Assembly (NCBI GenBank): GCA_001563915.1 | Contig: LKMP01000017.1 | Coordinates: forward strand, 1-15,215 | Reading direction: 5' to 3' | DNA: 15,215 nt | From: Nanohaloarchaea archaeon B1-Br10_U2g21 | GTDB taxonomy: Archaea; Nanohalarchaeota; Nanosalinia; Nanosalinales; Nanosalinaceae | Part shown: piece by piece, positions 3 to 14,323 of the stretch | Position numbering within the stretch: position 1 is the stretch's first letter | Layout: each line of letters opens with the position of its first letter | The notes under the pieces: generated by a model | The model's input: only the letters and a program-made list of their open reading frames with translations | Database searches by the model: none | Told to the model about the DNA's origin: nothing | Position numbers and translations under genes: made by a program

Positions 3-962
3 GATCACTTCGGAGAAGTTATGCGTACTATGGAGAACGAGATTCAGAAAGGTTATATCGGACAAGAGGATGTTATTAACAAAATCATGTTAACAGTATG
101 CGCAGGAGGAAATATTCTTTTAGAAGGCGTACCAGGTCTTGGAAAGTCTCTTCTTGTTGAGCAATTAGGAAGAGTTGTTGAAGGTACTGATTTCAATCGT
201 ATTCAATTTACGCCAGATAAGCTGCCGAGCGATATTGTGGGTGTTGAGGCCTACAACGAGGATAAAGGATTTTATGTCGAGAAAGGACCTATTTTTGCAA
301 ACTTCATTTTAGCAGATGAGATTAACCGTGCGCCGCCCAAGGTTCAGTCCGCGATGCTTGAGGCGATGCAGGAGCACAAGGTATCTATTGGAGACGAAAC
401 GTTCCATTTACCAGAACCATTCTTTACTATGGCTACTCAGAACCCTGTAGAGCAGGGAGGAACATATCCATTACCGGAAGCACAGATTGACCGCTTTCTT
501 TTCAAAATTTATTTAGATTATCCCAAGAAGCATAATGAAGCTAAGATTATTGATATGAACGCGAACATTATGGATGATGAAGATTTTGATGTGAATCCTG
601 TTGTCACAAGACAAGATGTGGCAGATCTTCAGGAGTTCGCAAAACAGGTTACTGTAAGGCCTGAGATCAAGAAATATATTGTTGATCTTGTTTCGGCTTC
701 AAGAGAACCTCAGGATTATGGTTTAGAGTATGCTGATTATATTGCTTGGGGTTGTACGCCTCGTGCAAGCATTAACTTAGCGTTAGCTGGTCGAGCTCAT
801 GCTCTTTATAATAAAAGGCATTATGTGACGCCTGATGATATTAGGGCTGTGCTAGAGGAAGTATTTATTCATAGGATTATTTTGAACTATGAAGGAGAGG
901 CTCAAGGGCTTGAAGTTTCAGATATTATTGAAAATATCGTGAATCGTGTTCCTGTAAGATAA
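3..962 (+). CDS. moxR: MoxR-family AAA+ ATPase, probably 5'-truncated by the window edge
   Basis: Walker A GVPGLGKS, RIQFTPD..PSDIVG, KGPIFAN, Walker B ILADEINRAPPKVQSA, ATQNPVEQGGTYPLPEAQIDRF, and a C-terminal lid with WGCTPRAS and HRIILN. The frame is open from position 3 (DHFGEV) up to the ATG at 21, so the true start may be upstream. Confidence 0.96.
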   Translation, partial: DHFGEVMRTMENEIQKGYIGQEDVINKIMLTVCAGGNILLEGVPGLGKSLLVEQLGRVVEGTDFNRIQFTPDKLPSDIVGVEAYNEDKGFYVEKGPIFANFILADEINRAPPKVQSAMLEAMQEHKVSIGDETFHLPEPFFTMATQNPVEQGGTYPLPEAQIDRFLFKIYLDYPKKHNEAKIIDMNANIMDDEDFDVNPVVTRQDVADLQEFAKQVTVRPEIKKYIVDLVSASREPQDYGLEYADYIAWGCTPRASINLALAGRAHALYNKRHYVTPDDIRAVLEEVFIHRIILNYEGEAQGLEVSDIIENIVNRVPVR

Positions 963-970
963 ATTGGGTT

Positions 971-1369
971 TTAGATTTCTCTAGGGTTGTAGTGGTCAAG
1001 CATCACGTCTCGTCCTTCATATACTGGTTCTGCTACTTGTTGGGGCACATCTCTAGCATCTATAATTTCCTCTAGGTTCTGAGTCACTGCATTTAAGTAG
1101 TTTTCAGCGTATTCAAACTCTTCTCTAATATAATGTCCGTTTTCTTGACTTTCTTCAAGCCATTCTAATACATTTTCTCTGCCTGATTCTTGAAACGCAT
1201 TTTGGATTGCCGACCCTTCATCACTGAAGTTTATGAACCTGTTTTTTACCATGTCATTATAGGCTTCAGGATTTCTTAGAAAGTGTTGAAAATCAGTTGT
1301 TAGCTGCTGGCCATATCTTACATATACTTCAAATGCTCTTGAGTTTAAGTTTAGTTCAGAGTCATTCAT
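971..1369 (-). CDS. Hypothetical acidic, predicted helical protein (132 aa)
   Basis: Intact ORF with acidic composition. Its start overlaps the upstream stop (ATGA, 1366-1369), suggesting translational coupling. No recognised motif. Confidence 0.75.
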   Translation of the reverse strand: MNDSELNLNSRAFEVYVRYGQQLTTDFQHFLRNPEAYNDMVKNRFINFSDEGSAIQNAFQESGRENVLEWLEESQENGHYIREEFEYAENYLNAVTQNLEEIIDARDVPQQVAEPVYEGRDVMLDHYNPREI

Positions 1370-2115
1370 TTTTCTTTCATCTCCATTTGTTCTGCTTTTC
1401 GTCCTAGTTCTTCATTTATCTCTTCTACATAGTCTATTACCTGTTCTCTTGCTTCTGAAGCAAGCCATGGGAAAGCAGTAAAGTGTTCTTCAAAGAAACC
1501 TTCAAGATATTCTCTGTCTTTATCATACATGGCCGGATTATATGATTGTACTGCGATAGTCTTAGCAGGATCTTTATTGGCTGATACTTGTTCATTGAGC
1601 ATGTAAAGGTTTGCTTGTGCTGTCTGAGGCTGAGTCAGTAGATTGGATTTGTTTTCGAGTCTGTTGATTTCTTGAGCTAGTTGCTCGTTTCTTTCTATTG
1701 CTGTTTCTTCTGAGATAGTTTCTGCCTCTTCTGCTTCATGCATATTTTTCCACATTCTATCATTTAAGCCGGAAATTTCTCTGTTGATTTCTGAGGATAG
1801 CTGGTTTCTTTCTAATTCTTCTTCAAGTCCAAAGTGTTGGTCTTCATAAGTTCCTCTTAAGACCTGTATTCGACTTACTATTTTTTCTTCCATTAGTTCT
1901 GGCCACAGATATGTTATTGCGTTCTTGTCAATGAAGTCAGGATCTACTTCGATATAGTCTCCGTTTGTTGCTATAATACCAGGGTAGTCCATATTTTCTC
2001 TGAGTGCAACTTCGAAACCATATTGTTCTGCTGTTTCTACTATATGTTCTCTTAATTCTTCTGTCTGTCCATAATTTTCAGGTTCCAAAGTTCCGTAGGC
2101 TACTATATCATCCAT
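1366..2115 (-). CDS. Gamma-glutamylcyclotransferase (GGCT/AIG2)-like protein with a long helical insertion (249 aa)
   Basis: N-terminal IVAYGTL, then GFEVAL..MDYPGII..IEVD, a later SRIQV strand and an ANLY strand, in the order of the GGCT-like pattern (YGTL / YP / V.G / R..v.v / awvY). Residues about 90-160 look like coiled coil. The ORF is solid; the fold call is tentative. Confidence 0.5.
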   Translation of the reverse strand: MDDIVAYGTLEPENYGQTEELREHIVETAEQYGFEVALRENMDYPGIIATNGDYIEVDPDFIDKNAITYLWPELMEEKIVSRIQVLRGTYEDQHFGLEEELERNQLSSEINREISGLNDRMWKNMHEAEEAETISEETAIERNEQLAQEINRLENKSNLLTQPQTAQANLYMLNEQVSANKDPAKTIAVQSYNPAMYDKDREYLEGFFEEHFTAFPWLASEAREQVIDYVEEINEELGRKAEQMEMKEK

Positions 2116-2133
2116 ATACTACTCTCCCATAAC

Positions 2134-2154
2134 AAACTTTAAATTTGCAAGTTT
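2134..2154 (-). promoter_or_regulatory. TATA-like box (TTTAAA, 2138-2143) inside a 6-9-6 inverted repeat; candidate promoter/operator of the 2115 operon
   Basis: AAACTT (2134-2139), N9, AAGTTT (2149-2154). The TTTAAA lies 23-28 nt upstream of the ATG at 2115, the spacing of archaeal leaderless transcripts. Confidence 0.45.
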
Positions 2155-2237
2155 TTTGGAAGAAGGTTATACACACTAAATTGGTATATCTAAACCTTAA
2201 TCCTATTTTTCAACGCTAAAAGTTGTATTACTTGTTT

Positions 2238-2879
2238 ATGCCGTCAGAAAGTAATTGGAAAAACCTCATCTCCGACAATAATTTTAACCAAGTACGAAAA
2301 GCACTAAGCAATGATTTTACTGCCGAAATTCTAGAAATTTTATCAGATAACCCTATGCACCGACGCGAACTAAGCAAACAATTTGACTGTCACGAAGCCA
2401 CCTTATATCGAAGAGTTGATACTCTAGAAGAAACCGGTCTTGTAGAAAATCAAAACAGTTTCTCCAACCTCCATAACGATAACCTAGATAACAGAGTAAA
2501 AATGCTCTATAAAACTACAGAAAACGGCAAAGACGTATTAGAAACTTACAAAAGTTTTGCCAACGAATATGAGTCTTTTGATAAACTCATAGGCAATAAT
2601 AACGTTTGCTACTTACTTGGAACTGTTAAAGACTCCCCAGGTTTTGAAACAGAAATACAAGAAACTTTGCATGATGCAGGAATCACTATATCTGCTCGCA
2701 CGACAGGCCGACACCTAGAGTTACTATATGATAACGGTCTTTTAGATACAATACCCTCTCAGAAAAGTACTGAAGAATCCTATAAAATAACTGGAATCGG
2801 AGAAGAGCTAATTGAAGGCATTCAAGATATTTACTCCTCCAGTTTACAATCCAGAACCCTCTCTCCAAGCCAGGATTAG
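2238..2879 (+). CDS. Transcriptional regulator with two tandem winged helix-turn-helix domains (ArsR/HxlR-like)
   Basis: Domain 1: KALSNDFTAEILEILSDNPMHRRELSKQFDCHEATLYRRVDTLEETGLVE...YKTTENG. Domain 2: ISARTTGRHLELLYDNGLL...YKITGIG. ATG at 2238 preferred over the TTG at 2223. Confidence 0.85.
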   Translation: MPSESNWKNLISDNNFNQVRKALSNDFTAEILEILSDNPMHRRELSKQFDCHEATLYRRVDTLEETGLVENQNSFSNLHNDNLDNRVKMLYKTTENGKDVLETYKSFANEYESFDKLIGNNNVCYLLGTVKDSPGFETEIQETLHDAGITISARTTGRHLELLYDNGLLDTIPSQKSTEESYKITGIGEELIEGIQDIYSSSLQSRTLSPSQD

Positions 2880-2886
2880 ATGATTC

Positions 2887-2896
2887 TTTTTTTATT
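2887..2896 (+). promoter_or_regulatory. T7 run / TTTTATT: possible oligo-T terminator of the wHTH gene and TATA box of the DUF58 gene
   Basis: TTTTTTTATT begins 8 nt after the stop at 2879 and ends about 25 nt before the ATG at 2921. Confidence 0.4.
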
Positions 2897-2920
2897 CAGG
2901 CCTGCCCTATTCTTCTCTAT

Positions 2921-3808
2921 ATGCGGGAAGAAGATTTCTTTGGTTCGGACGACTTGACCAAGAAAGTAGATGCCGAGGTTAAACGCGTTTCAGATACTTT
3001 CAGGTTCGCGCTGAAATACAAGGAGCAATTTCAGGCATCAGGCATTGAATTCTCCGACCTAAGAGAGTATCTGCCAAGTGATGACGCATCTCGAATTGAC
3101 TGGAAGAACTCTGCCGCTACAGAAGAATTATATGTCAAAGAGTATGAGGAAGAAAAAGACATGGATGTCTTTATCGTGCTAGATGCTTCCGATTCAATGA
3201 TGTTTGGCACCTCAGACAAGTTGAAATCAGAGTACGCCGCCGTTATTGCATCCGCTATAGCTTATGCCTCTGTAGACGCAGGAATCAGTGTTGGGTTCGG
3301 CATCTATGCTGATAATGAATTGACTATGACTCCTGAAGGAGGACAGGTCCAATACCAAAAAATTTTGAACGAAGTTACACGATTTGAGAACTATGGAGGA
3401 GAATTCAACCTAGAAAAAGCCCTAAACAACATTATAGGCCAGATAAAAGCTAATACTGCAGTATTCATAGTTTCAGATTTTATTGATGTTCAAGGAGAAT
3501 GGAAGTCTAAGATGCTCGTGTCATCGAAAAAATTCAGACACGTAATGAACGTAATGGTCAGAGACCTTAGAGATTATAAGCTGCCTGAAGCAGGAAACTA
3601 CAGATTTGAAGACATCTCTACTGGAGAGCAAATGGTTGTCAACACTTCAAAGATTCGAGAAGAGTTCAATAAAAAGGCCTTAGAACAGGAAGGAAAAATA
3701 ATGGACAAAGTAGAGGGAGCTGGAGCTTCAATTATCAAGGTAGATACACGAGATGAGTTCGCAGGTAAATTCGCAGAGTACTTTGATGAGGAGGGAGCTA
3801 ACTGGTGA
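2921..3808 (+). CDS. DUF58 family protein (VWA-like MoxR partner)
   Basis: GIEFSDLREYLPSDDASRIDWKNSA, YVKEYEEE, MIDAS-like VLDASDSM, and FIVSDF. Confidence 0.93.
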   Translation: MREEDFFGSDDLTKKVDAEVKRVSDTFRFALKYKEQFQASGIEFSDLREYLPSDDASRIDWKNSAATEELYVKEYEEEKDMDVFIVLDASDSMMFGTSDKLKSEYAAVIASAIAYASVDAGISVGFGIYADNELTMTPEGGQVQYQKILNEVTRFENYGGEFNLEKALNNIIGQIKANTAVFIVSDFIDVQGEWKSKMLVSSKKFRHVMNVMVRDLRDYKLPEAGNYRFEDISTGEQMVVNTSKIREEFNKKALEQEGKIMDKVEGAGASIIKVDTRDEFAGKFAEYFDEEGANW

Positions 3809-4758
3809 GATTAATATTCACAGACCAATACGCCAACTTACTGCTTTTACTTAATGGATTAATTATACTGATATTTCTCTACTCGAAGAGGAAAAAGAGA
3901 AAAAGAGTAATGAAATTCGGGAACTATGAAGTTATGAAGAAGGTAGCTGAAGGAAACCTGATAAAATCAGATAACATAATAATTATTATCAGAGTATTAG
4001 CAATCTCAGCACTCTTAATAGGCCTCTCAAATCCAGTCATAGTGCAACAAGTGACTGGAGCTGACGCTGACTACGTATTAGCTCTTGACGCATCAGGTTC
4101 AATGTTTACCTCTGATGTTGAACCAACACGCTTTGATGCAGCAAAGGAGGTAAGTCAAGAATTCGTAGCTGGTCTCGGAAACAGCACCTCTGTAGGCCTA
4201 ATCTCTTTCTCAGGAGAAGTAAATGAAGAAAAAGAAATCACCGACGATCTCTCAGATGTTCAACACAGCATCCAAAGCTTAGAAATGGGAGATGAAGCAG
4301 GCGCAGCCACCGGCGACGCAATATCTTCAGGAGTATCAATGATGATAAGCTCTGAAAGATCTCGTGAACTAGTATTAGTGACTGATGGTCGTCAAAACGT
4401 AGGACAAACCATTAACGAGTCCGCAGATTTTGCGGCACGCCAAAATGTTACAGTCCACTCAATAGGTATAGGCGATGGAGAAGTAGACGAACAAGACCGC
4501 TATGGAATGGTGTCTGGCGAGAATGCTACTCGCGCCGATTTCCCTAACTTAAATGAAAATGATCTATTAGGTCTTGCAAACCAAACAGGCGGAGAAACAA
4601 TTTTTGTATCTGATCGAGAAGGCCTTGAAACCGCTTTTGTCGATTTAACTGAAGATGAGGCAGAAAGAGATATTTCCAGATACTTAATATTACTTGCAGG
4701 GTTTTTACTAATTCTTGAAGCAGTAGTACGAACTACTGACTTCCAGATCATACCTTAA
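3805..4758 (+). CDS. Membrane-anchored von Willebrand factor A domain protein (BatA-like)
   Basis: Two N-terminal TM helices, MIDAS LDASGSM, DVEPTRFDAAK, ATGDAI, LVTDG, VHSIGIG, LANQTGG, and a C-terminal TM. GTG start overlaps the DUF58 TGA (GTGA), with GAGGAGGGAG upstream. Confidence 0.93.
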   Translation: MRLIFTDQYANLLLLLNGLIILIFLYSKRKKRKRVMKFGNYEVMKKVAEGNLIKSDNIIIIIRVLAISALLIGLSNPVIVQQVTGADADYVLALDASGSMFTSDVEPTRFDAAKEVSQEFVAGLGNSTSVGLISFSGEVNEEKEITDDLSDVQHSIQSLEMGDEAGAATGDAISSGVSMMISSERSRELVLVTDGRQNVGQTINESADFAARQNVTVHSIGIGDGEVDEQDRYGMVSGENATRADFPNLNENDLLGLANQTGGETIFVSDREGLETAFVDLTEDEAERDISRYLILLAGFLLILEAVVRTTDFQIIP

Positions 4759-4771
4759 AGTATTATTTAAG
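4758..4771 (+). promoter_or_regulatory. TATA-like promoter (AAG-TATTATTTAAG) for the 4794 gene
   Basis: TTATTTAAG at 4763-4771, 23-31 nt upstream of the ATG at 4794, preceded by purines. Confidence 0.5.
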
Positions 4772-4793
4772 CCCTCCCAATTGATTTCCAGAG

Positions 4794-6287
4794 ATGAGTG
4801 ATGTCGAAAAACTTTCAACGGAAAAAGTATCAGAGCTTGTTACTAGCGATGCCTCTGAGTTTAAGGACAAAGTTTCAGACACCGATTTGAGCGTTGAAAG
4901 TCTTAAGGAGTTAAAAAAAGCTGAGGCTGCCGGACAAGATAGAGAAGAAATATTGAAGTTTATAGACAGCAAAATTAATGCAGGCAATGTTGCAGTGCAT
5001 TTGGGTACTGCTAAAGATGATGTAGCTGAACTAGAAGAAATTATAGAATTCATAGAGGAAGTAGAAGATATAGAAAATTTTGAAAAAGATTCTATAGAAA
5101 TAGACCAAAACACGTTAATTGATCTTGTAGGCGGCACCGTTAAAGAACTGAAAAAATTTGTGAGCGAGAACTCCTTGACTGCAGAACAAATAGATAACAT
5201 CCTAAACGCTGAAAGCAAAGTCAAGGACCGTAAAACCGCCAAATCATTTCTAGAAGCTGAGTTAAGAAAGAGGAAAATGGCGCAAGATACTTCAAAAGTC
5301 AAAGAAGATATAGACAGTCTCAAACATGATCTCAAAGAGCTTGAAGAAGATTCTGACGCAGAAAACATCGACTTATCTCCTAACTCAGAAAATGTTGAAG
5401 ACTCAAAAGAAAGTCCTGAAGAAAAATCGGAAGAGGAAGAAGACGAACAAGAAAAAGATGAATCCGAAAACACAGTTGAACAGGAACATGAAAGAAACAG
5501 AAAGAATGAGTCTTCAGAAAAAGTCGCTGACTCAGAAGAAGAGGAACTAGACTCAGAAGATGATAATCTCGAAGAAAAGCGAGATATTGCGGAGGAGTTA
5601 GGCCTAGATATTTCTGATAAAGATCTCGAAAAGTTCTCTGTAGAAGATTTACATAATGTTCTTGGTGAAAAGAAGCATAGAACTGATTTAATAGATTTTC
5701 TCAAAGGCAAAGGTCTTGAAAAATCTACCTTAAAGGCTTCTAGTACTAAAGATCTTGAGAAAATAGCGGAAGGTTTTGAGGATGAAGACAAAAAGGAAGA
5801 CCATGAAGAGATGCGTGAAGAAGCCGAAGAAGATTTAGAAATGTTAATGGGAGCTGTGAGAGGAAAAAATAATGAGGAAGAAGATGAGGAAGACGCAAAA
5901 GATACTCGAGAAAAGCTAAGTGATTTGAAGGAAAGTATAACTGAGAAATTGAATAGAAATAGCGGAGATGAAACCGCTTCTGATGGCATCGACCCGGGCC
6001 AGGTAAGCGAAGTACTGGATCAGTACAGTAATCTGGGCGATGAGGAAGCTGCTGTGAAGACTGCTCACGTTATGAAAGGTTTTCTTGAGCAAAGCCTAGC
6101 TATTGAGCGGGAGATGACGTACAAGGAGTTAGCGGAAAATATGCCAGTAGACGATAATGAAGATGTAGAAGCTCTAGCAGAGTTCTTTTTGAAGATGCAC
6201 CGCGAACAGTATACAGGACAATTCAGTATAGAAGATGTAGATTCAACTATTGATATATGTGAGAACGTTCTAGAGACTTTAAGTTAA
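4794..6287 (+). CDS. Highly acidic cytoplasmic protein with internal repeats and a C-terminal DUF4129/DUF4381-like helical domain (497 aa)
   Basis: Two roughly 96-aa N-terminal repeats, a D/E-rich linker, a second short repeat pair, and C-terminal MKGFLEQSLAIEREMTYKELAE...LAEFF...EQY. No signal peptide or TM. The ORF is solid; the domain name is tentative. Confidence 0.8.
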   Translation: MSDVEKLSTEKVSELVTSDASEFKDKVSDTDLSVESLKELKKAEAAGQDREEILKFIDSKINAGNVAVHLGTAKDDVAELEEIIEFIEEVEDIENFEKDSIEIDQNTLIDLVGGTVKELKKFVSENSLTAEQIDNILNAESKVKDRKTAKSFLEAELRKRKMAQDTSKVKEDIDSLKHDLKELEEDSDAENIDLSPNSENVEDSKESPEEKSEEEEDEQEKDESENTVEQEHERNRKNESSEKVADSEEEELDSEDDNLEEKRDIAEELGLDISDKDLEKFSVEDLHNVLGEKKHRTDLIDFLKGKGLEKSTLKASSTKDLEKIAEGFEDEDKKEDHEEMREEAEEDLEMLMGAVRGKNNEEEDEEDAKDTREKLSDLKESITEKLNRNSGDETASDGIDPGQVSEVLDQYSNLGDEEAAVKTAHVMKGFLEQSLAIEREMTYKELAENMPVDDNEDVEALAEFFLKMHREQYTGQFSIEDVDSTIDICENVLETLS

Positions 6288-7945
6288 CCAAAAGGTAGTA
6301 GGCCTGGTGGCATCGCACCATAGTATGCAGAAGCCAGATAAATTATTATGAATGCTTCTCCGACTACTAAAAGTACTAAAGGCACTTTAACAGTCATATT
6401 GTGTATACCATATTTTTTAGTCATTAAAGCGTAAATTAGAAGTAATACAGTCCATAAAGATGCAACTATAGGTACCCTAAATTCCTCAGGCACAACTCCA
6501 ATTTCTTCTCTTACATCAATATCTAAATCTGCAAAAGTAAACTCTCCCTCTTCTGAAGACACAATAACCGTAGACTCGCACTCTGTTACTTCATCTGTAG
6601 CATCAAAACCGATATCAACCGAAACCTGTTCTTCAGGACTTAAGGTCTCTAATGTTTCAGCCTCATATTCTCCACAATCCTCAGAGTTCTGCAATTCAAC
6701 AGTTACATCATTCAAGTCTTCCTCCCCCATATTTTCGAGAAGTATAGGTATGTTTCGCGACTGATTCATCTCAAATGCAAGATTTCTAGGAGATTCTTGA
6801 ATAGCAAGTGATCCAACGAAGATATCTTGAGTTACGTCTACGTTAATATGCTCTATAGCTACGTCTTCCTCATCTATAGATGCATATACAGGTATCTGAT
6901 ACATTCCTGGAGAAACATCTTCACTAGGGTTTACGTAAACCTCTCTCTCCAAAGACTCGTTTACTTCAAGCGATTCTATATCTGCATCTTGAGACTCCCA
7001 GTCCTCGTTATCGAATCGTGGCTCAAGATTCATCCCATCAATATCTTCCTCTCCAACATTTTCGATTTCCATACCCACCTCTGTAAATCGCCCTCTAGGA
7101 GCCTCATATGTTGTGTTCAATGGTTGCATACTGACACTAATCATTGGAACGGGACTAGGCGATGGATCTGGCTGTGGCACTTCAGTTTCTCCTGGATCCG
7201 GACTATCACCAGGGCGTGGTTCTGCATCATCATCTGTCTCATCAGCATCAGCATCAAGCTCTGCATCATCCTCTAGATCGCTTTCATTTGCATCAGTATC
7301 TATTTCTGCTGTATCATTCAACTCTTCCTCTTCTGCATCTACATCTACATCCAAATCTACATCATCGTCTTCTCCTACGTCATCAGGAATTACCCCGTCA
7401 CCATCTACAAGTATTACCTCAAAAGTTCGATTTTCTTTTACAGTCCCCGACTCATTACCACAGTTGTAATCTATGTCCGCTCTACCCGTATAGTTTCCTG
7501 AAGGATAATCCGCCCAGAACTCTAGCATAAAGTCCTCAAAGCGGCCTGTTATAGTTTCATTACCATCTTCATCAGTTTCAATAGACGTTTCAGTAGAAAG
7601 CTCAGTATCAAAAGAATAATTTGCTGGCTGATTATCATCCGGAGGAATAACGTATTCAGTATCATTTTCAGGCATATCCAAAGTTCTGTTCTCATGAGAC
7701 GTAACACTCAAATTAAAGGCCACATCAGCATCGTGATTACCTTGATTCGCAAGAGTTCCTGAAAAGTAGCCTGTACCATTAGTACCTATCACCTTATGAT
7801 CCTGTGTGCCGATTCCTGGCTGTTCAAAATCATAGAGCGAAACCTGACAAGACTCGCTGACTGAAACATTTACATCTGTATCTTGAGAAGCTGCAGCTAG
7901 AATTACTAAACCAGTTACTGCCAAGACTAAGACGAATTTTTTCAT
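6284..7945 (-). CDS. Secreted, membrane-anchored cell-surface glycoprotein with CARDB/NEW3-like Ig folds (553 aa)
   Basis: Signal peptide MKKFVLVLAVTGLVILAAAS. Acidic and Pro-rich linker. Two Ig-like repeats (IENVGEEDIDGMNL...LEVNES...VSPGMYQIPV; LENMGEEDLNDVTV...LSPEEQ). Two C-terminal TM helices. Many N-x-S/T sequons. Confidence 0.85.
   Translation of the reverse strand: MKKFVLVLAVTGLVILAAASQDTDVNVSVSESCQVSLYDFEQPGIGTQDHKVIGTNGTGYFSGTLANQGNHDADVAFNLSVTSHENRTLDMPENDTEYVIPPDDNQPANYSFDTELSTETSIETDEDGNETITGRFEDFMLEFWADYPSGNYTGRADIDYNCGNESGTVKENRTFEVILVDGDGVIPDDVGEDDDVDLDVDVDAEEEELNDTAEIDTDANESDLEDDAELDADADETDDDAEPRPGDSPDPGETEVPQPDPSPSPVPMISVSMQPLNTTYEAPRGRFTEVGMEIENVGEEDIDGMNLEPRFDNEDWESQDADIESLEVNESLEREVYVNPSEDVSPGMYQIPVYASIDEEDVAIEHINVDVTQDIFVGSLAIQESPRNLAFEMNQSRNIPILLENMGEEDLNDVTVELQNSEDCGEYEAETLETLSPEEQVSVDIGFDATDEVTECESTVIVSSEEGEFTFADLDIDVREEIGVVPEEFRVPIVASLWTVLLLIYALMTKKYGIHNMTVKVPLVLLVVGEAFIIIYLASAYYGAMPPGLLPFG
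7223..7357 (-). repeat. Three degenerate 15-aa (45-bp) acidic tandem repeats inside the 553-aa protein
   Basis: DLDVDVDAEEEELND / TAEIDTDANESDLED / DAELDADADETDDDA. The plus strand is rich in gcatca/acatct hexamers. Confidence 0.6.
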
Positions 7946-8589
7946 GTTAATGCCTCTCTTATTATATAAAGCACTGTCAACAGCAGCAAAGCTACCAGTA
8001 TATATGTGGATGCACTGAAGCCTTCACCTTCTTCAACAGTTTCTTGCTCCTCCTGTTCTTCTCCCCTTTCTGTTTCATTTACTTGTTCGGAGGTTTTTGT
8101 TTCTTCTTCCTCTGTATCATTTCCATCTCTCGTTTCTTCGGGCGTTATGAGATCGCCTCCGAACCCATGTTCCTCCTCAAAACCTGAAGCATACTCAAAG
8201 CTGTACTCCCGTTCTTGTACGACTAAAGGACCTGTTCCTCCTTGATCTCGGTAAGCTCTCAAAGTTACTGGAACTTCATAGACTCCTTGCACAGGATCTT
8301 TATCTGAAACGTTCACGCCATAATAGTTGACTGGTAGATTCTCTCCCCGGTACATATACTGGGAGCTTGGGTCATTGATATCAAAAGTTCTGTTTCTTTC
8401 ATATTCGTAATTTAGGCCTTCTACCTCTTCTATATCTATTTCGACTATTATTTCTTCATCAGCCACAACACCTATTTTAAATTCCGCTTTAGGACCTTCT
8501 TGCTGTTTATCAGAAGCAAAAGTTCCAAAAATAGCTTGAGCTGAAGAAATTAAGAGGAATAATACTAGAATTAGACTTATTTTTCTCAT
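7942..8589 (-). CDS. Secreted single-domain surface protein with an acidic stalk and C-terminal TM anchor (215 aa)
   Basis: Signal peptide ending SSAQA, beta-rich domain ending GVYEVPVTLRA...QEREYSFEY, E/T-rich linker, TM YILVALLLLTVLYII. ATGA overlap with the next gene. Confidence 0.85.
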   Translation of the reverse strand: MRKISLILVLFLLISSAQAIFGTFASDKQQEGPKAEFKIGVVADEEIIVEIDIEEVEGLNYEYERNRTFDINDPSSQYMYRGENLPVNYYGVNVSDKDPVQGVYEVPVTLRAYRDQGGTGPLVVQEREYSFEYASGFEEEHGFGGDLITPEETRDGNDTEEEETKTSEQVNETERGEEQEEQETVEEGEGFSASTYILVALLLLTVLYIIREALT

Positions 8590-8595
8590 TTAGTG

Positions 8596-10368
8596 TTATC
8601 CCTCTGTTGTGTTAGCTTTGAAAGTTATACTTCCCGTATATGCTCCTCTAATTATGCCTTGAGGCACATCAAGCCAATAGTTAAAGCTTAGTATTTCTCC
8701 AGGATCTAAATCTTCATCTACACGAGTGAAACTAGATCCTATGGTTTCTGGCTCATTATTTCCTTCAATAGAATAAGACATATTTCCAATACCTATACTG
8801 TATCTAGATTCTTCCTCAGATATGAGATCACTACCTTTAATCCATAGATGATCCACAGTATTACTTTCTTCATCTACTGTCAAGTTATATCCCTGCTCAT
8901 TATCTTGTGCTGGCCTTTCAGAGTCACCAGGATCTAAAAGCCCGAAATCTATAACATTCCAGCCCATATCAAGTAATAATATTTCTTCAACAGTTATCTG
9001 TGTCCTATTAGAAGACTGTGATTCAATATCATAGTTCGAAGAGGCTTCAAAGTCTAATAGATGAGTTGATCCATCTTCACCAGTAGCATTTACACTCCAG
9101 TCTATTTCACATCTTTCGTCTTGTTTGAGATCATCACAGTTGTCAGTTCTCATTTCTGTGACTTCAAATATGTCTTCATTAAATGATTCTTGTTGACCCG
9201 AATCATTGCTTCTAGGTTCAAGATCGAGTGTGCCGCAATCTCCTCCAATACAGTCTATAAAGCCTGTAAAGTTGAATTCACGATTTTTCTGCACAACAGA
9301 TCCATCTATAGGATTTTCAACAAATGCTTCAATTATCCCTAGAACAGTAACATCTAGTTCATGATTATCGCTATCTTGAGTGTCTTCGGTTGTTAATACC
9401 TCAAAACTCTGTTCAAATGTATTAGTAGATGCTTGACTAATATTGACTATATAGTTTGCATTTAGTTGTTGTTCAGGCTCTAAAGTGCCTCCGTTCCCTG
9501 TGTTCCAGCTTACTTCCCCTTCAGAGAAGTCTCCGCCTTCTTTTATCTCATCTAATTCATAATAAATGTCTTCTGCGGTATCTAATTCCCAAGATTGATT
9601 CAGGCCTTCATGAACAATAGAGTCTGAAGAAGTTAGAACCCAGTCATCAGATCCTTGGTTTTTAACCTCAAAAGAAAACCTGTACTCTTCAGAACTAGAC
9701 TGATTTAAATTAAAAGTTTTGTTTAGACCTTCATCCACTAACTCTCCCCCAGTTCTTTGACTTTCTTCATCTGTAACGTTAAAAATCTGTATATTTTCTA
9801 GTGACGGCAAGGCAGCATTTTCTCCTGTTGTATATCCTGAAAACTCTGAAACATTATAGCTGAAAACCTCGTTTTCAGAGTCATAACTTGATTCAAAATC
9901 CGAAACACTGTTTAATCCCCATTCTTGACATTCCAGCCCTTCAAAATCCATACATTGAGCTATTCTGTCAGGTTGTTCGCGTTCTAAAGTTAGTTTTGCT
10001 GTATCAAAGTCAATAGATTGGTTGTTAAAGTAAAATTTATCTGCATGTGTTAGGAATTCTTCTCCTTCCGGCAGTTCTTTCTCAAATATTCGAGGTCTAA
10101 AGTCAAAGTCTTCTGAAATGGAGAAATCATAAAAAGTTGTTTTTGGACCTTCTTCTGGTTCGGCAATTAATTTGTATTGTTCGGCTGTTTCTAGTTCTGT
10201 TTCTAAACTGCCATCAGAAGATTCGATCGTTTCCCCATCAAGCACAACTTCATATTCTACGTTTAATCTGTCTCCATCTGAGTCTAGCGTTTCCACAGTA
10301 AAGTCTGCTGCAGTCGTTGCTAGAGATAAAAATATTAGAATCGTCAGGAGAATTAGTGATTTTTCCAT
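8596..10368 (-). CDS. Secreted multi-domain beta-sandwich surface glycoprotein with no TM anchor (590 aa)
   Basis: Signal peptide. PGF-pre-PGF-like segment (IAQC..CQEW...FSYNVSEFSGY). Cys pairs (CIGGDC, CDDLKQDERC). C-terminal IDFGLLDPG...WLDVPQGIIRGAYTGSITFKA. About 14 N-x-S/T sequons by hand count. Confidence 0.85.
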   Translation of the reverse strand: MEKSLILLTILIFLSLATTAADFTVETLDSDGDRLNVEYEVVLDGETIESSDGSLETELETAEQYKLIAEPEEGPKTTFYDFSISEDFDFRPRIFEKELPEGEEFLTHADKFYFNNQSIDFDTAKLTLEREQPDRIAQCMDFEGLECQEWGLNSVSDFESSYDSENEVFSYNVSEFSGYTTGENAALPSLENIQIFNVTDEESQRTGGELVDEGLNKTFNLNQSSSEEYRFSFEVKNQGSDDWVLTSSDSIVHEGLNQSWELDTAEDIYYELDEIKEGGDFSEGEVSWNTGNGGTLEPEQQLNANYIVNISQASTNTFEQSFEVLTTEDTQDSDNHELDVTVLGIIEAFVENPIDGSVVQKNREFNFTGFIDCIGGDCGTLDLEPRSNDSGQQESFNEDIFEVTEMRTDNCDDLKQDERCEIDWSVNATGEDGSTHLLDFEASSNYDIESQSSNRTQITVEEILLLDMGWNVIDFGLLDPGDSERPAQDNEQGYNLTVDEESNTVDHLWIKGSDLISEEESRYSIGIGNMSYSIEGNNEPETIGSSFTRVDEDLDPGEILSFNYWLDVPQGIIRGAYTGSITFKANTTEG

Positions 10369-10912: not shown

Positions 10913-11314
10913 ATGGAAGTAAAACTTTGGATGGTATTTGAAGCTGTGGCAGCTACCGAAGAAGGTGTTGAAGGAGCTCTAGACGAACATCTTGAAAAAC
11001 TTGGCAATGAGCCAAAAGCTGAAATAGTTGAACAGAATATTGACAAGGTTGAAGAGGTAGAAAATCCACATCCGAGTATTGAGAAAGGTTATTCCCAAGT
11101 AGCTGAAGTAGTAGTAGATGCTTCTAGTTTTGAGGAGTCTGTTGCCCTTGTTATCAATTATGGACCTACTTATATCCAGATTGAGGAGCCTGATTTGTAT
11201 GAATTAAAATTAAAAGAAGGTCAGGAAACACTTCAGGATGTTGCAGATATTATGCGACGTTATGCAGAGATGGGTGTTGGAGGCATGCTTGTATCCAAAA
11301 CCGGAGAAAAATAG
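10913..11314 (+). CDS. Hypothetical alpha/beta protein, probably a conserved archaeal family (133 aa)
   Basis: Intact acidic ORF with its own TATA box. Alternating strand/helix pattern with YSQVAEV and NYGPTYIQIEEP segments. Function unknown. Confidence 0.8.
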   Translation: MEVKLWMVFEAVAATEEGVEGALDEHLEKLGNEPKAEIVEQNIDKVEEVENPHPSIEKGYSQVAEVVVDASSFEESVALVINYGPTYIQIEEPDLYELKLKEGQETLQDVADIMRRYAEMGVGGMLVSKTGEK

Positions 11315-11326: not shown

Positions 11327-12208
11327 ATGAAGCGAAAAATCGTGTTAGTTGTTTTTATTATTCTTATAACTTCTCTAGCATCAGCTAACTCGATAGATGA
11401 GCACAACGTAACTGTTGACTTAGAAGATGATACTGTTGAAGTATCCATGTTTTTCAACAGTATTAGTCAAGACCGTTTTACTTATCTAACCGATCACCCA
11501 GTTGATAACGTAGAGGGCGAAGTTGATGGAGAACCTACTGACTGCGAATTTGAACCTATGTCTCTTGGAGGAGAGATAGTCTGCGATATTGACAAGTTTG
11601 AGGACTTTAAAATAGATCTAGACTATGAAACTTCGGGCTTAACAACCGATCGTAACGGCGCAACAATATTCCGTTACAGTCAAGTAATCTATAGGCCTAC
11701 TAGCAGCCATAATTTCAAGGTTTTCTTGCCGGAAGGAACAGGAATTCTTGAGGAGGATGGAAATATTTCCACACAAGTTGTGGATCCTGAAGATGGCGTG
11801 GTTGGCAGTGAGGGCCGTAGGATACATGTTGAATGGAGTACCGATCCATCTTTAGGAGAATCTGTTTCTTACCAGGTAATATACGAAGATATTCAAACTG
11901 ACTTCAGATTCATTATAGGATTATTAACTCTATTAGTATTGTCTATAGGTTTTATTCGGTTTTACATTACTTACAGGTCTAAAAGAGATATTTCAGGTAT
12001 TTTAGATGAGTTAACAGAGGACGAAATAATGGTTCTAGATTTAATTCGTGAAAACAAAAGCATGTTGCAGAAAGATATTGTTTCCGAATCTGATTACTCA
12101 AAGGCAAAAATTTCAGGAGTTATTTCAAGCTTGGAAGAGAAAAATATTGTTTCAAAGGAGAAAGAAGGCCGAAGTAATAGAGTATGGGTAAAAGAAGAAT
12201 ATCTTTAA
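11327..12208 (+). CDS. Membrane-anchored winged-helix transcriptional regulator (COG2512-like)
   Basis: Signal peptide, extracellular beta domain with a Cys pair (PTDC...IVC) and VFLPEG, TM FIIGLLTLLVLSIGFI, then wHTH LTEDEIMVLDLI..MLQKDIV..YSKAKISGVISSLEEKNIVSKEKEGRSNRV. Confidence 0.88.
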   Translation: MKRKIVLVVFIILITSLASANSIDEHNVTVDLEDDTVEVSMFFNSISQDRFTYLTDHPVDNVEGEVDGEPTDCEFEPMSLGGEIVCDIDKFEDFKIDLDYETSGLTTDRNGATIFRYSQVIYRPTSSHNFKVFLPEGTGILEEDGNISTQVVDPEDGVVGSEGRRIHVEWSTDPSLGESVSYQVIYEDIQTDFRFIIGLLTLLVLSIGFIRFYITYRSKRDISGILDELTEDEIMVLDLIRENKSMLQKDIVSESDYSKAKISGVISSLEEKNIVSKEKEGRSNRVWVKEEYL

Positions 12209-12474
12209 TTTGTATGAGATATTGGAATATACTGGGCAACACCATTCCTTTCCAATCTACAAACACACTCGAGTTCTGAGGCCTGCTCTACTTCTTCAGA
12301 AAGCTCTATTTCAATTTTTTCAGGATCAAAACACGCGAATGATCCTTCTAATCTGTCTCTTTCTATCACTTCTTCTTCTATATCATCGCAGTACGTATCT
12401 TGAGTTCCCGTGGCAGTTACCATACCTGCCGCAAGACCAAGTACGCACGCAATTATGATTAGATATGTTTTCAT
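12205..12474 (-). CDS. Small secreted or membrane-tethered protein with four mature-region Cys (89 aa)
   Basis: N-terminal hydrophobic segment, then YC...ACF...ECVC. ATGA-coupled to the upstream gene. Confidence 0.75.
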   Translation of the reverse strand: MKTYLIIIACVLGLAAGMVTATGTQDTYCDDIEEEVIERDRLEGSFACFDPEKIEIELSEEVEQASELECVCRLERNGVAQYIPISHTN

Positions 12475-13109
12475 TCAAGCACCTCGTACCTGAGTTCTCC
12501 TTCAGATATAAATCCTTCTATTTTTTCTTCATCATCTACTATTAACGTAGGGCTTTGTGTAATGTTGTAATCTATCTCAAGTATTTCAATTATTAGCGAA
12601 TCATCCGTTTCAGTATTAAACGCAAACACTTGGAGATCTGTATCCATAACTATCTCATCTAGCACCGCTCCTTGTCTCTGACTATCAGTAGAATCATCAA
12701 AGAAAAACAGCACTTTATTTTCTTCAGCATCACACTCATCTTTATAGTCTGAAAGCATCATATACAGGCGCAGCTGATTGTTGTAGTATCTATCTCTAAG
12801 ATAATCATATTCGTCTTGATCATACCTGCCTCTTTCATCAAATCTTTCAAGCCTCTGACCTAGTTCAGCTCCTCTTTCAGATATTTCAGGCAATTGTGCC
12901 TCCGCAAGACCACAGTAGGATTCATGATTCTGTTCCATATAATTCTGTAGAACTGTAAATGTTTCAGTTTCTAAATCAGACTGCCTAATTTCATCATTTA
13001 GGTAATCCTGACGAAGATCATCCATTTGTAAGCCTACAAGCACTCCTAATAGCAATATAAGTAGCGTGAATCCTGCTGCTTTCAAGAATGATTCCTGAAC
13101 TATGTCCAT
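12471..13109 (-). CDS. Membrane-anchored protein with a helical hairpin and a C-terminal thioredoxin-like fold lacking CxxC (212 aa)
   Basis: N-terminal TM, helical region bracketed by two Cys (YCG, ECD), then KVLFFF-DDSTDS-QRQGAVLDEI, LQVFAFN, YNITQSPTLIVD..KIEGFISEGEL, which is the thioredoxin beta-alpha pattern with the cis-Pro motif. Confidence 0.7.
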   Translation of the reverse strand: MDIVQESFLKAAGFTLLILLLGVLVGLQMDDLRQDYLNDEIRQSDLETETFTVLQNYMEQNHESYCGLAEAQLPEISERGAELGQRLERFDERGRYDQDEYDYLRDRYYNNQLRLYMMLSDYKDECDAEENKVLFFFDDSTDSQRQGAVLDEIVMDTDLQVFAFNTETDDSLIIEILEIDYNITQSPTLIVDDEEKIEGFISEGELRYEVLE

Positions 13110-14323
13110 ACTTTCTCAATGCGTAATACTTCTTTTAAAACTGCAGCAACCCAAAACACTGACTGGAGTATAAAGTACATAAAGAAGTAAATTAGTAGTG
13201 CTAATCTATGTCGAGGCGTTTCTCCAGAATAACTGTATGCTAAACTAATTATATAGGCTATAAGTACTAAAGAAAGCAACATAGGCGCATAAACCATTAT
13301 ATTAAGCCCTAAAAATGATGCATACACATTTATGGCGCCTAACTCAGGCAAATAAAAACCTGTAGCAGACACTCTGAGCAAAATATTATAGATGCTTAAA
13401 GATACTCCATAAGACACCATCCCCAAACTCATAACAATTAATAATGGCATTATTACAAGCATAGGTAGCTGCAAAGTGCCAAAATAACCATATTTCCTAT
13501 TGAAGAACATTTCTCGATATTTCCAACCATTATATATGAATCCCCGAGCCCACCTAACTCTTTGATTGTATAACGCTCTCAGAGTAGACGGAAATTCCGT
13601 TTTTGAGGAATTAAAGTAAATCATTTCAAAGGATTTACCATATTTTCTTAGTTTAAATGCCATTTCCAAGTCTTCTGTCAGATTGTCTTCATCAAAACCT
13701 CCGGCCTCTTTTACGTCACGAGTACGATAAATAGAGAAAGCGCCCGGAGTAACGTTTAAGGTATTGATTTCAGTCATCAGCATCCTATAAAAATTCGTTA
13801 AACGATATTCTACTTTCTGAATCTTCTTGATAAAATTATCCGTATCTAAAGGCGCTATAGATGCAATAACTGCTCCTAAGTCTTCCCTCTCATGTATGGT
13901 GGCAACTGCTTTCTCCACTAATCCATCATCAATTTTTGAATCAGCATCCTGAACTACTACATACTCAGTATCAGTATATTCTAACCCTGTGTTGAGAGCT
14001 GCAGCCTTACCTTTGTTTTCTTGATGCCTCAAAATTTTGATATTTTTTGATTCAAATTTTTCAGCTTTTTGAAGCGTGCTATCAGTAGAAGCATCATCTA
14101 TAAACACTGCTTTAACAGGGTATTTAAGCTCTTTAACGCTGTTTAACGCTTCTTTGACAACATCCTCTTCATTGAACGCAGGCATTAGTATAGTAATCTC
14201 AGGTCGTTCATCAAGCTTGAGTTCTTCATTTCTTGTTTTCTTAACATTTGAATATATGCTGACGTAGAATACAGAAATGAATATTGAAGAAAATATTAGC
14301 ATCCAAGCCAGGTAAAGTATCAT
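13100..14323 (-). CDS. Processive family 2 glycosyltransferase (cellulose synthase / PgaC-IcaA-like, COG1215)
   Basis: MPAFNEE, IDDASTD, NKGKAAALN, VQDADS, VTPGAFSIYR, GGFD...TEDLE, QRVRW. One N-terminal and several C-terminal TM helices. Confidence 0.93.
   Translation of the reverse strand: MILYLAWMLIFSSIFISVFYVSIYSNVKKTRNEELKLDERPEITILMPAFNEEDVVKEALNSVKELKYPVKAVFIDDASTDSTLQKAEKFESKNIKILRHQENKGKAAALNTGLEYTDTEYVVVQDADSKIDDGLVEKAVATIHEREDLGAVIASIAPLDTDNFIKKIQKVEYRLTNFYRMLMTEINTLNVTPGAFSIYRTRDVKEAGGFDEDNLTEDLEMAFKLRKYGKSFEMIYFNSSKTEFPSTLRALYNQRVRWARGFIYNGWKYREMFFNRKYGYFGTLQLPMLVIMPLLIVMSLGMVSYGVSLSIYNILLRVSATGFYLPELGAINVYASFLGLNIMVYAPMLLSLVLIAYIISLAYSYSGETPRHRLALLIYFFMYFILQSVFWVAAVLKEVLRIEKVWT

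Follow-up and report, generated by a model that had tools for sequence, protein, structure and literature searches.

A candidate two-subunit membrane glycosyltransferase, a GT2 synthase paired with a thioredoxin-fold protein, in Nanohaloarchaea and other DPANN archaea

The described systems closest to the locus reported here include the poly-beta-1,6-GlcNAc synthases PgaC-PgaD of Escherichia coli and IcaA-IcaD of staphylococci, in whose pga and ica operons the gene for a small membrane partner comes right after the synthase gene, as it does at this locus. BcsB, the partner of BcsA, is TM-anchored and holds its outer domains over the channel exit. The channel-forming hyaluronan synthases (HAS) and BcsA have more TM helices than the roughly 4 of the synthase described below. 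Among archaeal enzymes, the membrane GT2 PcManGT of Pyrobaculum calidifontis (PDB 6YV7) has a 'minimal cellulose-synthase-like fold'; it is reportedly a mannosyltransferase that depends on Dol-P and makes no polymer, and no thioredoxin-fold partner of this enzyme is known to us. Ost3/Ost6 (TUSC3/MagT1) are membrane-anchored, CxxC-bearing thioredoxin-fold subunits of the eukaryotic oligosaccharyltransferase, situated on the non-cytoplasmic side.

We analysed 15,215 nucleotides of Nanohaloarchaea archaeon B1-Br10_U2g21 (contig LKMP01000017.1; hereafter the window), in which genes for a GT2 synthase, a 212-aa bitopic protein (p212) and a small bitopic Cys protein (p89) run towards a gene for a wHTH protein (Table 1). 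All four reading frames named in the original prediction are present, and their coordinates bear out the overlaps that it described: the GT2 and p212 genes have 10 bp in common (13100-13109), and the p212 and p89 genes share the four bases ATGA (12471-12474). The stop codon said to be shared by the p89 and wHTH genes is not literally one codon; rather, the two stops interlock through a two-base overlap inside TTAA (12205-12208). This arrangement is not due to chance, as dozens of genomes repeat it. The DPANN origin assumed in the original prediction is borne out: the source genome, 92% complete, is 816 kb in size, and homologs bear the source names Nanohaloarchaea, Nanosalina and Nanohalobium.

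Table 1. Positions of the genes and motifs discussed, in coordinates of the window.
Feature	Position	Strand	Length	Basis
GT2 synthase gene	13100-14323	minus	407 aa	
p212 gene (212-aa bitopic partner protein)	12471-13109	minus		
p89 gene (89-aa small bitopic Cys protein)	12205-12474	minus		
wHTH protein gene, neighbour	11327-12208	plus	293 aa	
p133 gene, neighbour (133-aa acidic protein, no assigned family)	10913-11314	plus		
DAD (DxD) metal/nucleotide-sugar motif, GT2 residues 126-128	13940-13948	minus		translation
QRVRW (QxxRW) acceptor-binding motif, GT2 residues 254-258	13550-13564	minus		translation
STDS in p212, aligned to CxxC of relatives	12681-12692	minus		translation and alignment A1

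PgaC and IcaA resemble the GT2 synthase in length (about 410 aa) and in domain order, which here starts with a single TM helix at the N-terminus and continues with the GT-A domain and the interface helices, ending in three TM helices. The D,D,D,QxxRW set recognised earlier is complete (D77, D126-A-D128, E217-D218 and Q254-R-V-R-W258), and D77, D126/D128, E217-D218 and Q254-R255-W258 are invariant in an alignment of 31 orthologs. GT2 matches PF00535 in Pfam (2e-31), and its best NCBIfam family is PgaC_IcaA (144.7 bits, collinear over 3-401 against 7-393 of 407), as is the case for 7/7 orthologs tested (139-184 bits). These full-length matches nevertheless fall well below the 422-bit cut-off of the best curated family, and assignment of GT2 to the PgaC/IcaA equivalog itself (TIGR03937, cut-off 422.3 bits) was therefore rejected. 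An operon of PgaC/IcaA type was rejected as well, with no PgaD/IcaD or PgaB/IcaB match in p212, p89 or other neighbours (E <= 0.1). The predicted lack of BcsB, PgaD, IcaD, PilZ and deacetylase agrees with our searches, which returned no match to any of them among eight neighbouring proteins (Pfam and NCBIfam, E <= 0.1). Unlike the Pga and Ica systems, this locus is without a deacetylase, porin or c-di-GMP element, and its host is an archaeon.

The AlphaFold2 (AF2) model of GT2 (pLDDT 88.8) superposes as a whole on the HAS of Chlorella virus (Cv-HAS; VIA Z 31.8, 367 aligned, rmsd 3.2) and Xenopus (XlHAS1; Z 30.0) and on BcsA (Z 27-29), albeit with only 12-20% sequence identity and with fewer TM helices (about 4 predicted). 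Chs1 is matched with a VIA Z of 25, and Foldseek matches to synthase folds lie between E 1e-15 and 1e-12. GT2 thus has the motifs and fold of membrane-integrated processive GT2 synthases (the BcsA/CesA, HAS, Chs, NodC and PgaC clade) and is a cellulose/hyaluronan-synthase-like catalytic subunit. Its processivity, export activity and product identity are what we infer, and what it makes may be a polymer that is exported or else a lipid-linked glycan.

The latter product belongs to an alternative that we consider somewhat unlikely, although several observations fit it. Under this alternative, GT2 would be PcManGT-like and non-processive, adding sugar to dolichyl phosphate or to a glycan carried on Dol-P(P); the p212 helix and the incomplete TM bundle of GT2 would present or flip the lipid-linked sugar, which a GT-C enzyme (encoded in the cluster of most relatives, lost in this genus) would use on surface proteins or glycans, while the thioredoxin domain of p212 would hold Cys clients such as p89, reminiscent of Ost3/Ost6. 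PcManGT has the same overall fold as GT2, ties with the polymer synthases as a fold match and is the top Foldseek match (E 4.9e-16, TM-score 0.75 on target; VIA Z 30.4, rmsd 3.2, 325 aligned), as well as the best PDB sequence match of the single GT2 protein (E 1.8e-11). The low number of predicted TM helices counts against a processive synthase, as does the presence of the D,D,D,QxxRW set in ceramide glucosyltransferase too, which the GT2 profile matches at 4.5e-8. However, PcManGT is shorter than GT2 (346-356 aa), 42 fewer of its residues superpose than for HAS, and the GT2 profile aligns with it over positions 34-233 only, that is, over the GT-A domain without TED or QxxRW. The alignment of the profile with BcsA extends over positions 6-311 and takes in both TED and QxxRW (E about 1e-31), and QRVRW of GT2 pairs with QRGRW of BcsA. 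Every curated polyprenyl-phosphate GT2 family, moreover, scored far below PgaC_IcaA. Since the source genome encodes a separate soluble EpsD/AglG-like GT2 beside a GT4, plus AglB, ordinary lipid-linked glycan assembly has no obvious need of the GT2 synthase.

The partner protein p212 consists of an N-in TM helix (~11-29), a spectrin-like three-helix stalk and a C-terminal thioredoxin fold (~129-212). Pfam gave a weak match only (Thioredoxin_3, E 0.056), but the fold claimed in the original prediction is borne out by a profile match to a PDB thioredoxin (E 1.3e-6) and by the AF2 model (pLDDT 86.2), which matches thioredoxins in Foldseek (E 3.7e-4, prob 1.0) and VIA (Z 12.0, rmsd 1.6, 78 aligned). 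Four residues are invariant in alignment A1, namely C66, Y108, C126 and P187, of which C66 and C126 form the Cys pair of the stalk and P187 belongs to the thioredoxin cis-Pro loop. The description of this domain as redox-dead is correct for the copy in the window, with STDS in place of CxxC, and for its genus. It does not extend to the family: CxxC occupies this position in 11/39 rows of A1 and occurs in 88/149 family representatives listed, a frequency that accords with a lipid-linked pathway, whereas its loss here and in the sampled Woesearchaeota clade (CxxC in 0/21 p212-like ORFs) argues against one. Many relatives thus retain CxxC while these two groups do not, and the role that is conserved in p212 would therefore be a structural one, with any redox function accessory to it.

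We rejected p212 as a homolog of BcsB, PgaD or IcaD, given the lack of a Pfam or NCBIfam match and a model that combines a three-helix bundle with a thioredoxin; the likeness is functional only. PgaD and IcaD are small proteins with two TM helices, whereas the unrelated p212 has one, followed by a 180-aa stalk/thioredoxin ectodomain. In comparison with BcsA-BcsB, GT2 is without a PilZ domain or gating-loop region, and p212 carries a thioredoxin and helical stalk, not BcsB domains. Ost3/Ost6 have four TM helices and a domain order opposite to that of p212, and they serve the STT3 complex, while the partner of p212 is GT2 and possibly also GT-C. No Ost3/Ost6 chain was present among the PDB matches of p212, which weighs slightly against the lipid-linked alternative.

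Modelling GT2 together with the 212-aa protein, as had been proposed, yielded a predicted interface with an ipSAE of 0.72 (runs 0.71, 0.73 and 0.72), against 0.00 for the best of 3 controls. In calibration, the mark was reached by 116/157 solved complexes and 2/215 mismatched pairs, with alignments that differed from those used here. Contact agreement between runs was at least 97% and partner pLDDT at least 78. In the predicted complex, p212 residues 3-36 pack with GT2 residues 7-27 and 313-350, so adding one TM helix to those of GT2, and p212 residues 86-93 and 141-152 contact the GT2 outer loop 334-343. The modelled interface is topologically coherent, and we infer that the two proteins bind each other in cells.

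We assessed how widely the two genes occur together. In the nanohaloarchaeal sample, p212 was matched in 54/61 genomes, none of which was without GT2; profile A1 finds p212 in 66/70 genomes of the phylum, including 28/28 high-quality ones. By a hand tally of match coordinates, GT2 abuts p212 or lies within about 220 bp of it in 41 of the 54 genomes, is separated from it by a spacer of 1.38-1.48 kb in 11, and lies 161 and 287 kb away in the remaining 2. Synteny among such close kin is not independent evidence, because TruD is as syntenic as the pair within the phylum. Outside the phylum, one genome (G060) has an overlapping GT2-p212 pair between the genes for CTP synthase and ribosomal protein S15, and a full GT2 ortholog lies directly upstream of a p212-like gene in 17/18 Woesearchaeota/Nanoarchaeota loci; the pattern used to find these loci came from a single clade lacking CxxC (A3), and they thus sample one lineage. 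The GT2 orthologs of the 17 loci match at E 1e-111 to 1e-133, apart from two cut by contig ends (3.5e-49 and 3.8e-53). The overlap with the p212-like gene is 7 bp in 6/6 of these loci checked, and the remaining neighbours are housekeeping genes. The neighbourhood survey that had been suggested is thus borne out for GT2 and p212, though for neither p89 nor the wHTH gene, both missing beside the pair in 18/18 Woesearchaeota/Nanoarchaeota loci.

This pairing bears on whether p212 might serve exported proteins in general, as a DsbA- or ResA-like thiol-disulfide oxidoreductase or chaperone outside the cytoplasm, and have nothing in common with an unrelated GT2 but a conserved place in the operon. 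Such a coincidence would suit the thioredoxin fold, the conserved cis-Pro loop and the CxxC of many members, and long syntenic blocks are kept whatever their function in the nanohaloarchaeal sample, TruD being an example; one p212-family member is named 'thiol-disulfide isomerase/thioredoxin' by its source. We nonetheless regard it as very unlikely, as the overlapping pair survives in other phyla where all other neighbours differ, whole clades without CxxC retain both p212 and the pairing, and the complex prediction passes where the controls do not. The proposal that p212 is a dedicated, non-homologous partner of GT2 therefore gains from gene overlap, cross-phylum pairing and complex prediction alike. 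A literature search found no published description of the GT2-p212 pair, in keeping with the claim of an undescribed system as far as the pair is concerned.

Additional glycosyltransferases accompany the pair in many relatives. GT-C genes (PMT_2 / Glyco_transf_22) lie between or beside GT2 and p212 in the 8 nanohaloarchaeal genomes checked and also in Woesearchaeota loci, and in 6 of the 11 genomes with the spacer mentioned above, this spacer was confirmed to be a GT-C gene. In two genomes of one genus (G022 and G034), GT2 has been relocated while the GT-C, p212 and p89 genes remain together, and p212 is therefore not tied to GT2 alone. As GT-C enzymes use lipid-linked donors, both observations favour the lipid-linked alternative; against it, the GT-C gene of the cluster was not found in the source genome (92% complete), which still keeps the pair.

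Weighing these data, we lean, if only slightly, towards a locus core that is a two-subunit membrane glycosyltransferase conserved across DPANN, in which GT2 makes and exports a beta-linked glycan and p212 caps it. The first subunit would be GT2, with the fold and motifs of processive beta-glycan synthases (PgaC/IcaA, NodC, hyaluronan and cellulose) and its GT-A domain on the cytoplasmic side. The second would be p212, translationally coupled to GT2, with its N-terminus in the cytoplasm, its single TM helix packed alongside TM1 and the TM helices at the C-terminus of GT2, and its stalk clamped by the conserved Cys pair. GT2 has just one outer loop of appreciable size, the presumed product exit, and the ectodomain of p212 (stalk plus thioredoxin fold) would rest on it. 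GT2 would assemble a beta-linked oligo- or polysaccharide from nucleotide sugar and move it outward via a TM bundle that the p212 helix completes, whereupon the p212 ectodomain may cap, guide or hand over the product, a role akin to that of PgaD/IcaD and BcsB but played by an unrelated protein. A bolder version, which we hold only tentatively and think rather unlikely, is a DPANN-wide, undescribed two-subunit synthase-translocase: a minimal cellulose-synthase-like GT2 both completed and capped by a bitopic, thioredoxin-derived subunit, with the export or hand-over of a surface glycan coupled to thiol-redox conditions at the cell surface where CxxC is kept, and with the GT-C enzymes of the cluster grafting or decorating the product. 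If true, ultra-small symbiotic archaea would share a core machine for surface glycans that defines their lineage, and a thioredoxin fold would have been co-opted as the structural partner of a glycosyltransferase, in convergence with Ost3/6 of the eukaryotic OST and with BcsB/PgaD of bacteria.

The third gene of the operon, p89, was seen only in the nanohaloarchaeal sample. Across 21 orthologs, its TM helix carries an invariant GxxxG (G13 and G17) and its ectodomain of ~60 aa has four conserved cysteines (C29, C48, C70 and C72), next to which p89 relatives have N-X-S/T sequons, a feature that would fit a client of the lipid-linked pathway. It is possible that p89 is a third subunit; probably it is an extra subunit or a client confined to the nanohaloarchaeal sample.

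In the wHTH protein, a signal peptide and an ectodomain are followed by a TM helix and, at the C-terminus, by the wHTH domain (DUF7343/MarR-like). Its match to PF24034 (7e-14; 51.9 bits against a gathering cut-off of 27.6; residues 230-286), preceded by a hydrophobic stretch at ~196-218 of the translation, indicates a membrane-tethered member of the DUF7343 family. A literature search found no publication characterising DUF7343. In the original prediction, all four genes formed one exopolysaccharide system in which this protein sensed host contact and regulated the synthase. The layout does fit a one-component membrane regulator, and the gene is adjacent, with interlocked stops, in the nanohaloarchaeal loci examined (match in 54/61 genomes). 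We judge this scenario most unlikely, however, because the wHTH gene lies in a separate transcription unit, convergent to the GT2 operon, and its adjacency is part of an extended block of synteny, with TruD and large surface proteins among its members, in which TruD, p133, p145 and p590 are equally conserved. It is also absent beside the pair in the 18/18 Woesearchaeota/Nanoarchaeota loci and in G060 (no match genome-wide), and neither a binding site nor a regulatory signal came to light. Other archaea carry this family widely and in several copies (5 matches in G057), and the Atlas has DUF7343 clusters of about 290 aa from Aenigmatarchaeota, Woesearchaeota and Nanobdellota (scores 0.94-0.97). 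The wHTH protein is thus a neighbour from a widespread DPANN regulator family, linked to the pair by phylum-wide gene order and by nothing beyond it, and no finding ties it to host contact. Beside the wHTH gene is the gene for p133, which has no Pfam or NCBIfam match; it lies 12 bp upstream on the same strand and is syntenic with the wHTH gene in nanohaloarchaeal loci, and the two probably form one transcription unit.

All four open reading frames of the original prediction were present at the locus, together with the two overlaps it described, 10 bp between the genes for the glycosyltransferase (GT2) and its 212-aa neighbor (p212) and an ATGA between p212 and the small cysteine protein (p89). 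The stop codon said to be shared by p89 and the winged-helix (wHTH) gene proved to be a pair of stops that interlock within TTAA. TruD, encoded on the same strand, ends 7 bp before GT2 begins, and the transcription unit may therefore start further upstream. The window comprises the whole of contig C9 in a genome of 816 kb (24 contigs, 92% complete), and the proteins translated from it are very acidic. Source databases label homologs of these proteins Nanohaloarchaea, Nanosalina or Nanohalobium, and the only sequencing runs listed with this DNA carry the label salt lake metagenome, with no RNA run among them. These features place the genome among the nanohaloarchaea, within DPANN.

Features of the contig, with the glycosyltransferase locus listed first
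Feature	Position	Strand	Description
GT2	13100-14323	-	407 aa, ORF
p212	12471-13109	-	ORF
p89	12205-12474	-	ORF
wHTH protein	11327-12208	+	293 aa, ORF
Acidic proteins	6284-10368	-	553, 215 and 590 aa
Long ORF	4794-6287	+	497 aa
Long ORF	4763-5989	-	408 aa
MoxR-VWA cluster	3-4758	+	MoxR-type AAA ATPase (AAA_3), DUF58 protein, VWA/BatA protein
wHTH gene within the MoxR-VWA cluster	2223-2879		

Family scans, motifs and fold matches indicate that GT2 has the fold and motifs of membrane-integrated processive synthases. It matched Pfam Glycos_transf_2 (2e-31) plus related families, and PgaC_IcaA was by far its best NCBIfam family (144.7 bits), with GT2 residues 3-401 collinear with model positions 7-393 of 407. 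PgaC_IcaA was also the top family in all seven GT2 orthologs tested (139-184 bits). The GT2 score is well below the PgaC_IcaA cut-off of 422.3 bits, and no curated family fits GT2 as an equivalog. Residues invariant in an alignment of 31 orthologs include D77, D126, D128, E217, D218, Q254, R255 and W258. Compared with PDB sequences, the GT2 profile aligned with BcsA at positions 6-311, including TED and QRGRW (~1e-31), with the archaeal mannosyltransferase PcManGT in the GT-A domain only (34-233, 1e-32), with HAS1 at positions 83-310, and with ceramide glucosyltransferase at positions 4-266 (4.5e-8). The AlphaFold2 model (pLDDT 88.8, pTM 0.86) is laid out as an N-terminal transmembrane (TM) helix, a GT-A domain, interface helices and three C-terminal TM helices. 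Its VIA matches were Chlorella virus hyaluronan synthase (Z 31.8, 367 residues aligned, rmsd 3.2), PcManGT (Z 30.4, 325 aligned), Xenopus HAS1 (Z 30.0, 359 aligned), BcsA (Z 27-29, 363-367 aligned) and yeast Chs1 (Z 25, 328-346 aligned), in agreement with Foldseek. By fold alone, polymer synthases and enzymes of the PcManGT type cannot be told apart. Only two PF00535 (GT2) genes were found in this 92% complete genome, and the synthase gene is one of them.

The catalytic subunit is of a known kind. Its partner p212 represents an unannotated protein family with a new architecture. Sequence scans of p212 returned only a sub-threshold thioredoxin match. In the AlphaFold2 model, based on an alignment of 39 relatives (pLDDT 86.2), the TM segment is part of one long helix, and two further helices complete a three-helix bundle that is spectrin-repeat-like (Z ~12, a level that means little for helical bundles). 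Residues ~129-212 form a thioredoxin fold, according to Foldseek (E 3.7e-4, prob 1.0), VIA (Z 12.0, rmsd 1.6, 78 aligned) and a profile match to a PDB thioredoxin (1.3e-6). Across the 39 relatives, C66, Y108, C126 and P187 are invariant. The window protein carries STDS at the site where 11 of the 39 have CxxC, and the latter motif was present in 88 of 149 other family representatives among those listed. The earlier description of p212 as redox-dead therefore applies to this genus and some clades, and not to the family. Ost3/Ost6 homologs were absent among the PDB matches of p212, so likeness to those proteins remains an analogy.

The p212 family comprises 1,436 or more clusters at 50% identity (E <= 1e-3; 1,117 at E <= 1e-10), has no Pfam domains, and carries the name 'hypothetical' in source databases. 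No GT2-p212 fusion was found among longer proteins, a search in which a single long form (707 aa) came up and which gives weak evidence. At three Woesearchaeota/Nanoarchaeota loci, the short p212 gene is followed in tandem by a long paralog of ~700 aa (L051:4977-7094, L059:4977-6992, L061:5558-7666), and P0111, P0138 and others are also long. The extra C-terminal 480 aa of these forms had no Pfam match and yielded only sub-threshold MBL-fold leads in the Atlas (scores <= 0.81), with no family named.

We assessed how consistently p212 accompanies GT2 among 61 sampled relatives, in which p212 was found in 54 and GT2 in 57. By distances tallied from match coordinates, which do not always reach gene ends, GT2 abutted p212 or lay within about 220 bp of it in 41 of the 54 genomes with p212, was separated from it by a spacer of 1.38-1.48 kb in 11, and was far away in two (287 kb in G022 and 161 kb in G034). 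None of the 61 relatives had p212 without GT2. Genomes lacking p212 had a partial GT2 (G031, 79% complete), a GT2 at a contig end (G056), a distant GT2 only (G059), or neither gene (G027, G045, G057, G058). Profile searches with the 39-row p212 alignment covered 70 genomes of the phylum and detected the family in 66, including all 28 of high quality. The GT2-p212 pair is thus nearly universal in the sampled nanohaloarchaeal genomes, and it recurs in other DPANN lineages. Together with the small number of GT2-family genes in the window's genome, this suggests an important envelope function.

The spacer holds a GT-C glycosyltransferase gene (Glyco_transf_22 / PMT_2). This gene was verified next to p212 in eight genomes (six of the spacer group plus the two in which GT2 has moved away), and we infer it from spacing alone in the remaining five spacer genomes. 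GT-C proteins of 473-476 aa are encoded between GT2 and p212 in many nanohaloarchaeal genera (L030:6663-8093, L027:5117-6538 and six further loci), and no such gene was found in the 92% complete genome of the window. G006 has two copies of the module (C58:830-4094 and C25:33134-34944), one with a GT-C-sized spacer and one with GT2 and p212 directly adjacent; given 3% contamination, two strains are possible. In the one genus with a displaced GT2 (161-287 kb from p212), the ortholog lacks a membrane partner gene (L028:4124-6511, G022), and is followed in G022 by a soluble 362-aa protein that reads as ArgE/DapE-type peptidase-like.

Synteny among kin proves little here, because TruD, the 133-aa neighbor p133, p145 and the 590-aa protein are equally syntenic in the phylum. 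Pairing across phyla is the decisive part of the case for a tie between p212 and GT2. In G060, which belongs to another phylum and is the only genome sampled from it, an overlapping GT2-p212 pair is kept between CTP synthase and S15 genes. A further 18 loci in Woesearchaeota/Nanoarchaeota were found through the pattern of a narrower p212 alignment, which samples one CxxC-less clade only. In 17 of these, the p212-like gene directly follows a full GT2 ortholog (E values of 1e-111 to 1e-133 with the GT2 profile; contig ends cut two of the orthologs), and a contig-end fragment is all that the 18th locus holds. A 7-bp overlap between the two genes was present at each of the six loci checked. The remaining neighbors comprise PMT_2-like membrane proteins and housekeeping genes (ScpB, an HTH_3 protein, RpoL, PCNA). 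Of the four families originally proposed to form a module, the GT2-p212 pair recurs outside the phylum, and p89 (in the Woesearchaeota/Nanoarchaeota loci) and the wHTH gene were not found beside it.

An interface between GT2 and p212, which the original prediction had proposed as a synthase or export partner, was returned by complex prediction using the alignments of both families. The ipSAE was 0.72 (runs 0.71, 0.73 and 0.72) compared with 0.00 for the best of three controls. In calibration, the mark was reached by 116 out of 157 complexes of known structure and by 2 out of 215 mismatched pairs, counts that are a rough guide here given that our own alignments were used. Contact agreement between runs was at least 97%, and partner pLDDT at least 78. 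Predicted contacts join p212 residues 3-36 to GT2 residues 7-27 and 313-350, and p212 residue 4 to GT2 residue 186 in the cytoplasmic domain. The interface also includes p212 residues 86-93 and 141-152, the latter a helix that comes after the CxxC-equivalent position, and GT2 residues 334-343, which lie between two TM helices in the AlphaFold2 fold. This contact pattern would give a coherent topology, with the p212 N-terminus inside and its ectodomain outside over the GT2 outer loop. We are aware of no comparable complex among solved structures, which makes it unlikely that the predictor merely reproduced a known one. The model supports binding of p212 to GT2, and the two are probably physical and functional partners.

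What the pair makes is less certain. We give roughly even chances to an exported oligo- or polysaccharide as the GT2 product. Consistent with this are the motif set, including a QxxRW that aligns with the BcsA motif, the consistent ranking of PgaC_IcaA as best family, the larger number of GT2 residues superposed on HAS than on PcManGT, and the predicted position of p212 over the outer face of GT2. The same reading is favored by the presence in the genome of AglB and of a separate conventional glycan-assembly cluster on contig C18, where a soluble EpsD/AglG-like GT2 adjoins a GT4 and a sugar nucleotidyltransferase is encoded close by. The motif set of the synthase also occurs in ceramide glucosyltransferase, and PcManGT matches the synthase fold equally well, as might be expected if GT2 acted in a lipid-linked glycan route feeding a GT-C, a reading we regard as possible though rather unlikely. 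The GT-C genes within the cluster in many relatives, the persistence of p212 with the GT-C gene where GT2 moves, and the prediction of only about four TM helices in GT2 also fit such a route. GlmS had no match in the 92% complete genome.

The genomes of Nanohaloarchaeota and Woesearchaeota do not exceed ~1 Mb, and these archaea are host-dependent. To our knowledge, little has been established about how they build their surfaces and attach to their hosts. The p212 family, its architecture and its conserved pairing with GT2 appear to be undescribed, based on literature outside subscription journals. Searches for PgaC or glycosyltransferases in nanohaloarchaea, and for N-acetylglucosamine synthase, cellulose synthase or GT2 enzymes in DPANN archaea, retrieved no relevant paper, nor did a search for DUF7343, the Pfam family of the wHTH protein.

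For p89, sequence conservation in 21 aligned orthologs comprises a GxxxG motif in the TM helix (invariant G13 and G17), invariant C48 and C72, and nearly invariant C29 and C70. The protein has the appearance of a small ectodomain, stabilized by disulfides, on a TM helix that has been retained, and its Pfam scan gave only a sub-threshold DACNK match (E 0.0057). It may serve as a subunit or a client of the pair. The sensor or regulator role originally assigned to the wHTH protein found no evidence: its gene is convergent to the GT2 operon and preceded by p133 at 12 bp, it is missing beside the pair outside the phylum, and DUF7343 is widespread, occurring in Aenigmatarchaeota, Woesearchaeota, Nanobdellota and methanogens, with five matches in one unrelated genome.

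Elsewhere in the window, the 553-, 215- and 590-aa proteins had no family above Pfam cut-offs and are syntenic with the GT2-p212 locus throughout the phylum; the 590-aa protein begins with a stretch resembling a signal peptide and contains numerous N-X-S/T sequons. All three are candidate surface glycoproteins. The two long ORFs that precede them overlap on opposite strands, and the minus-strand frame is probably a shadow, since a relative of the plus-strand frame occurs in a second genome (L038). At the start of the window, the genes form a typical MoxR-VWA cluster with a second wHTH gene in between.
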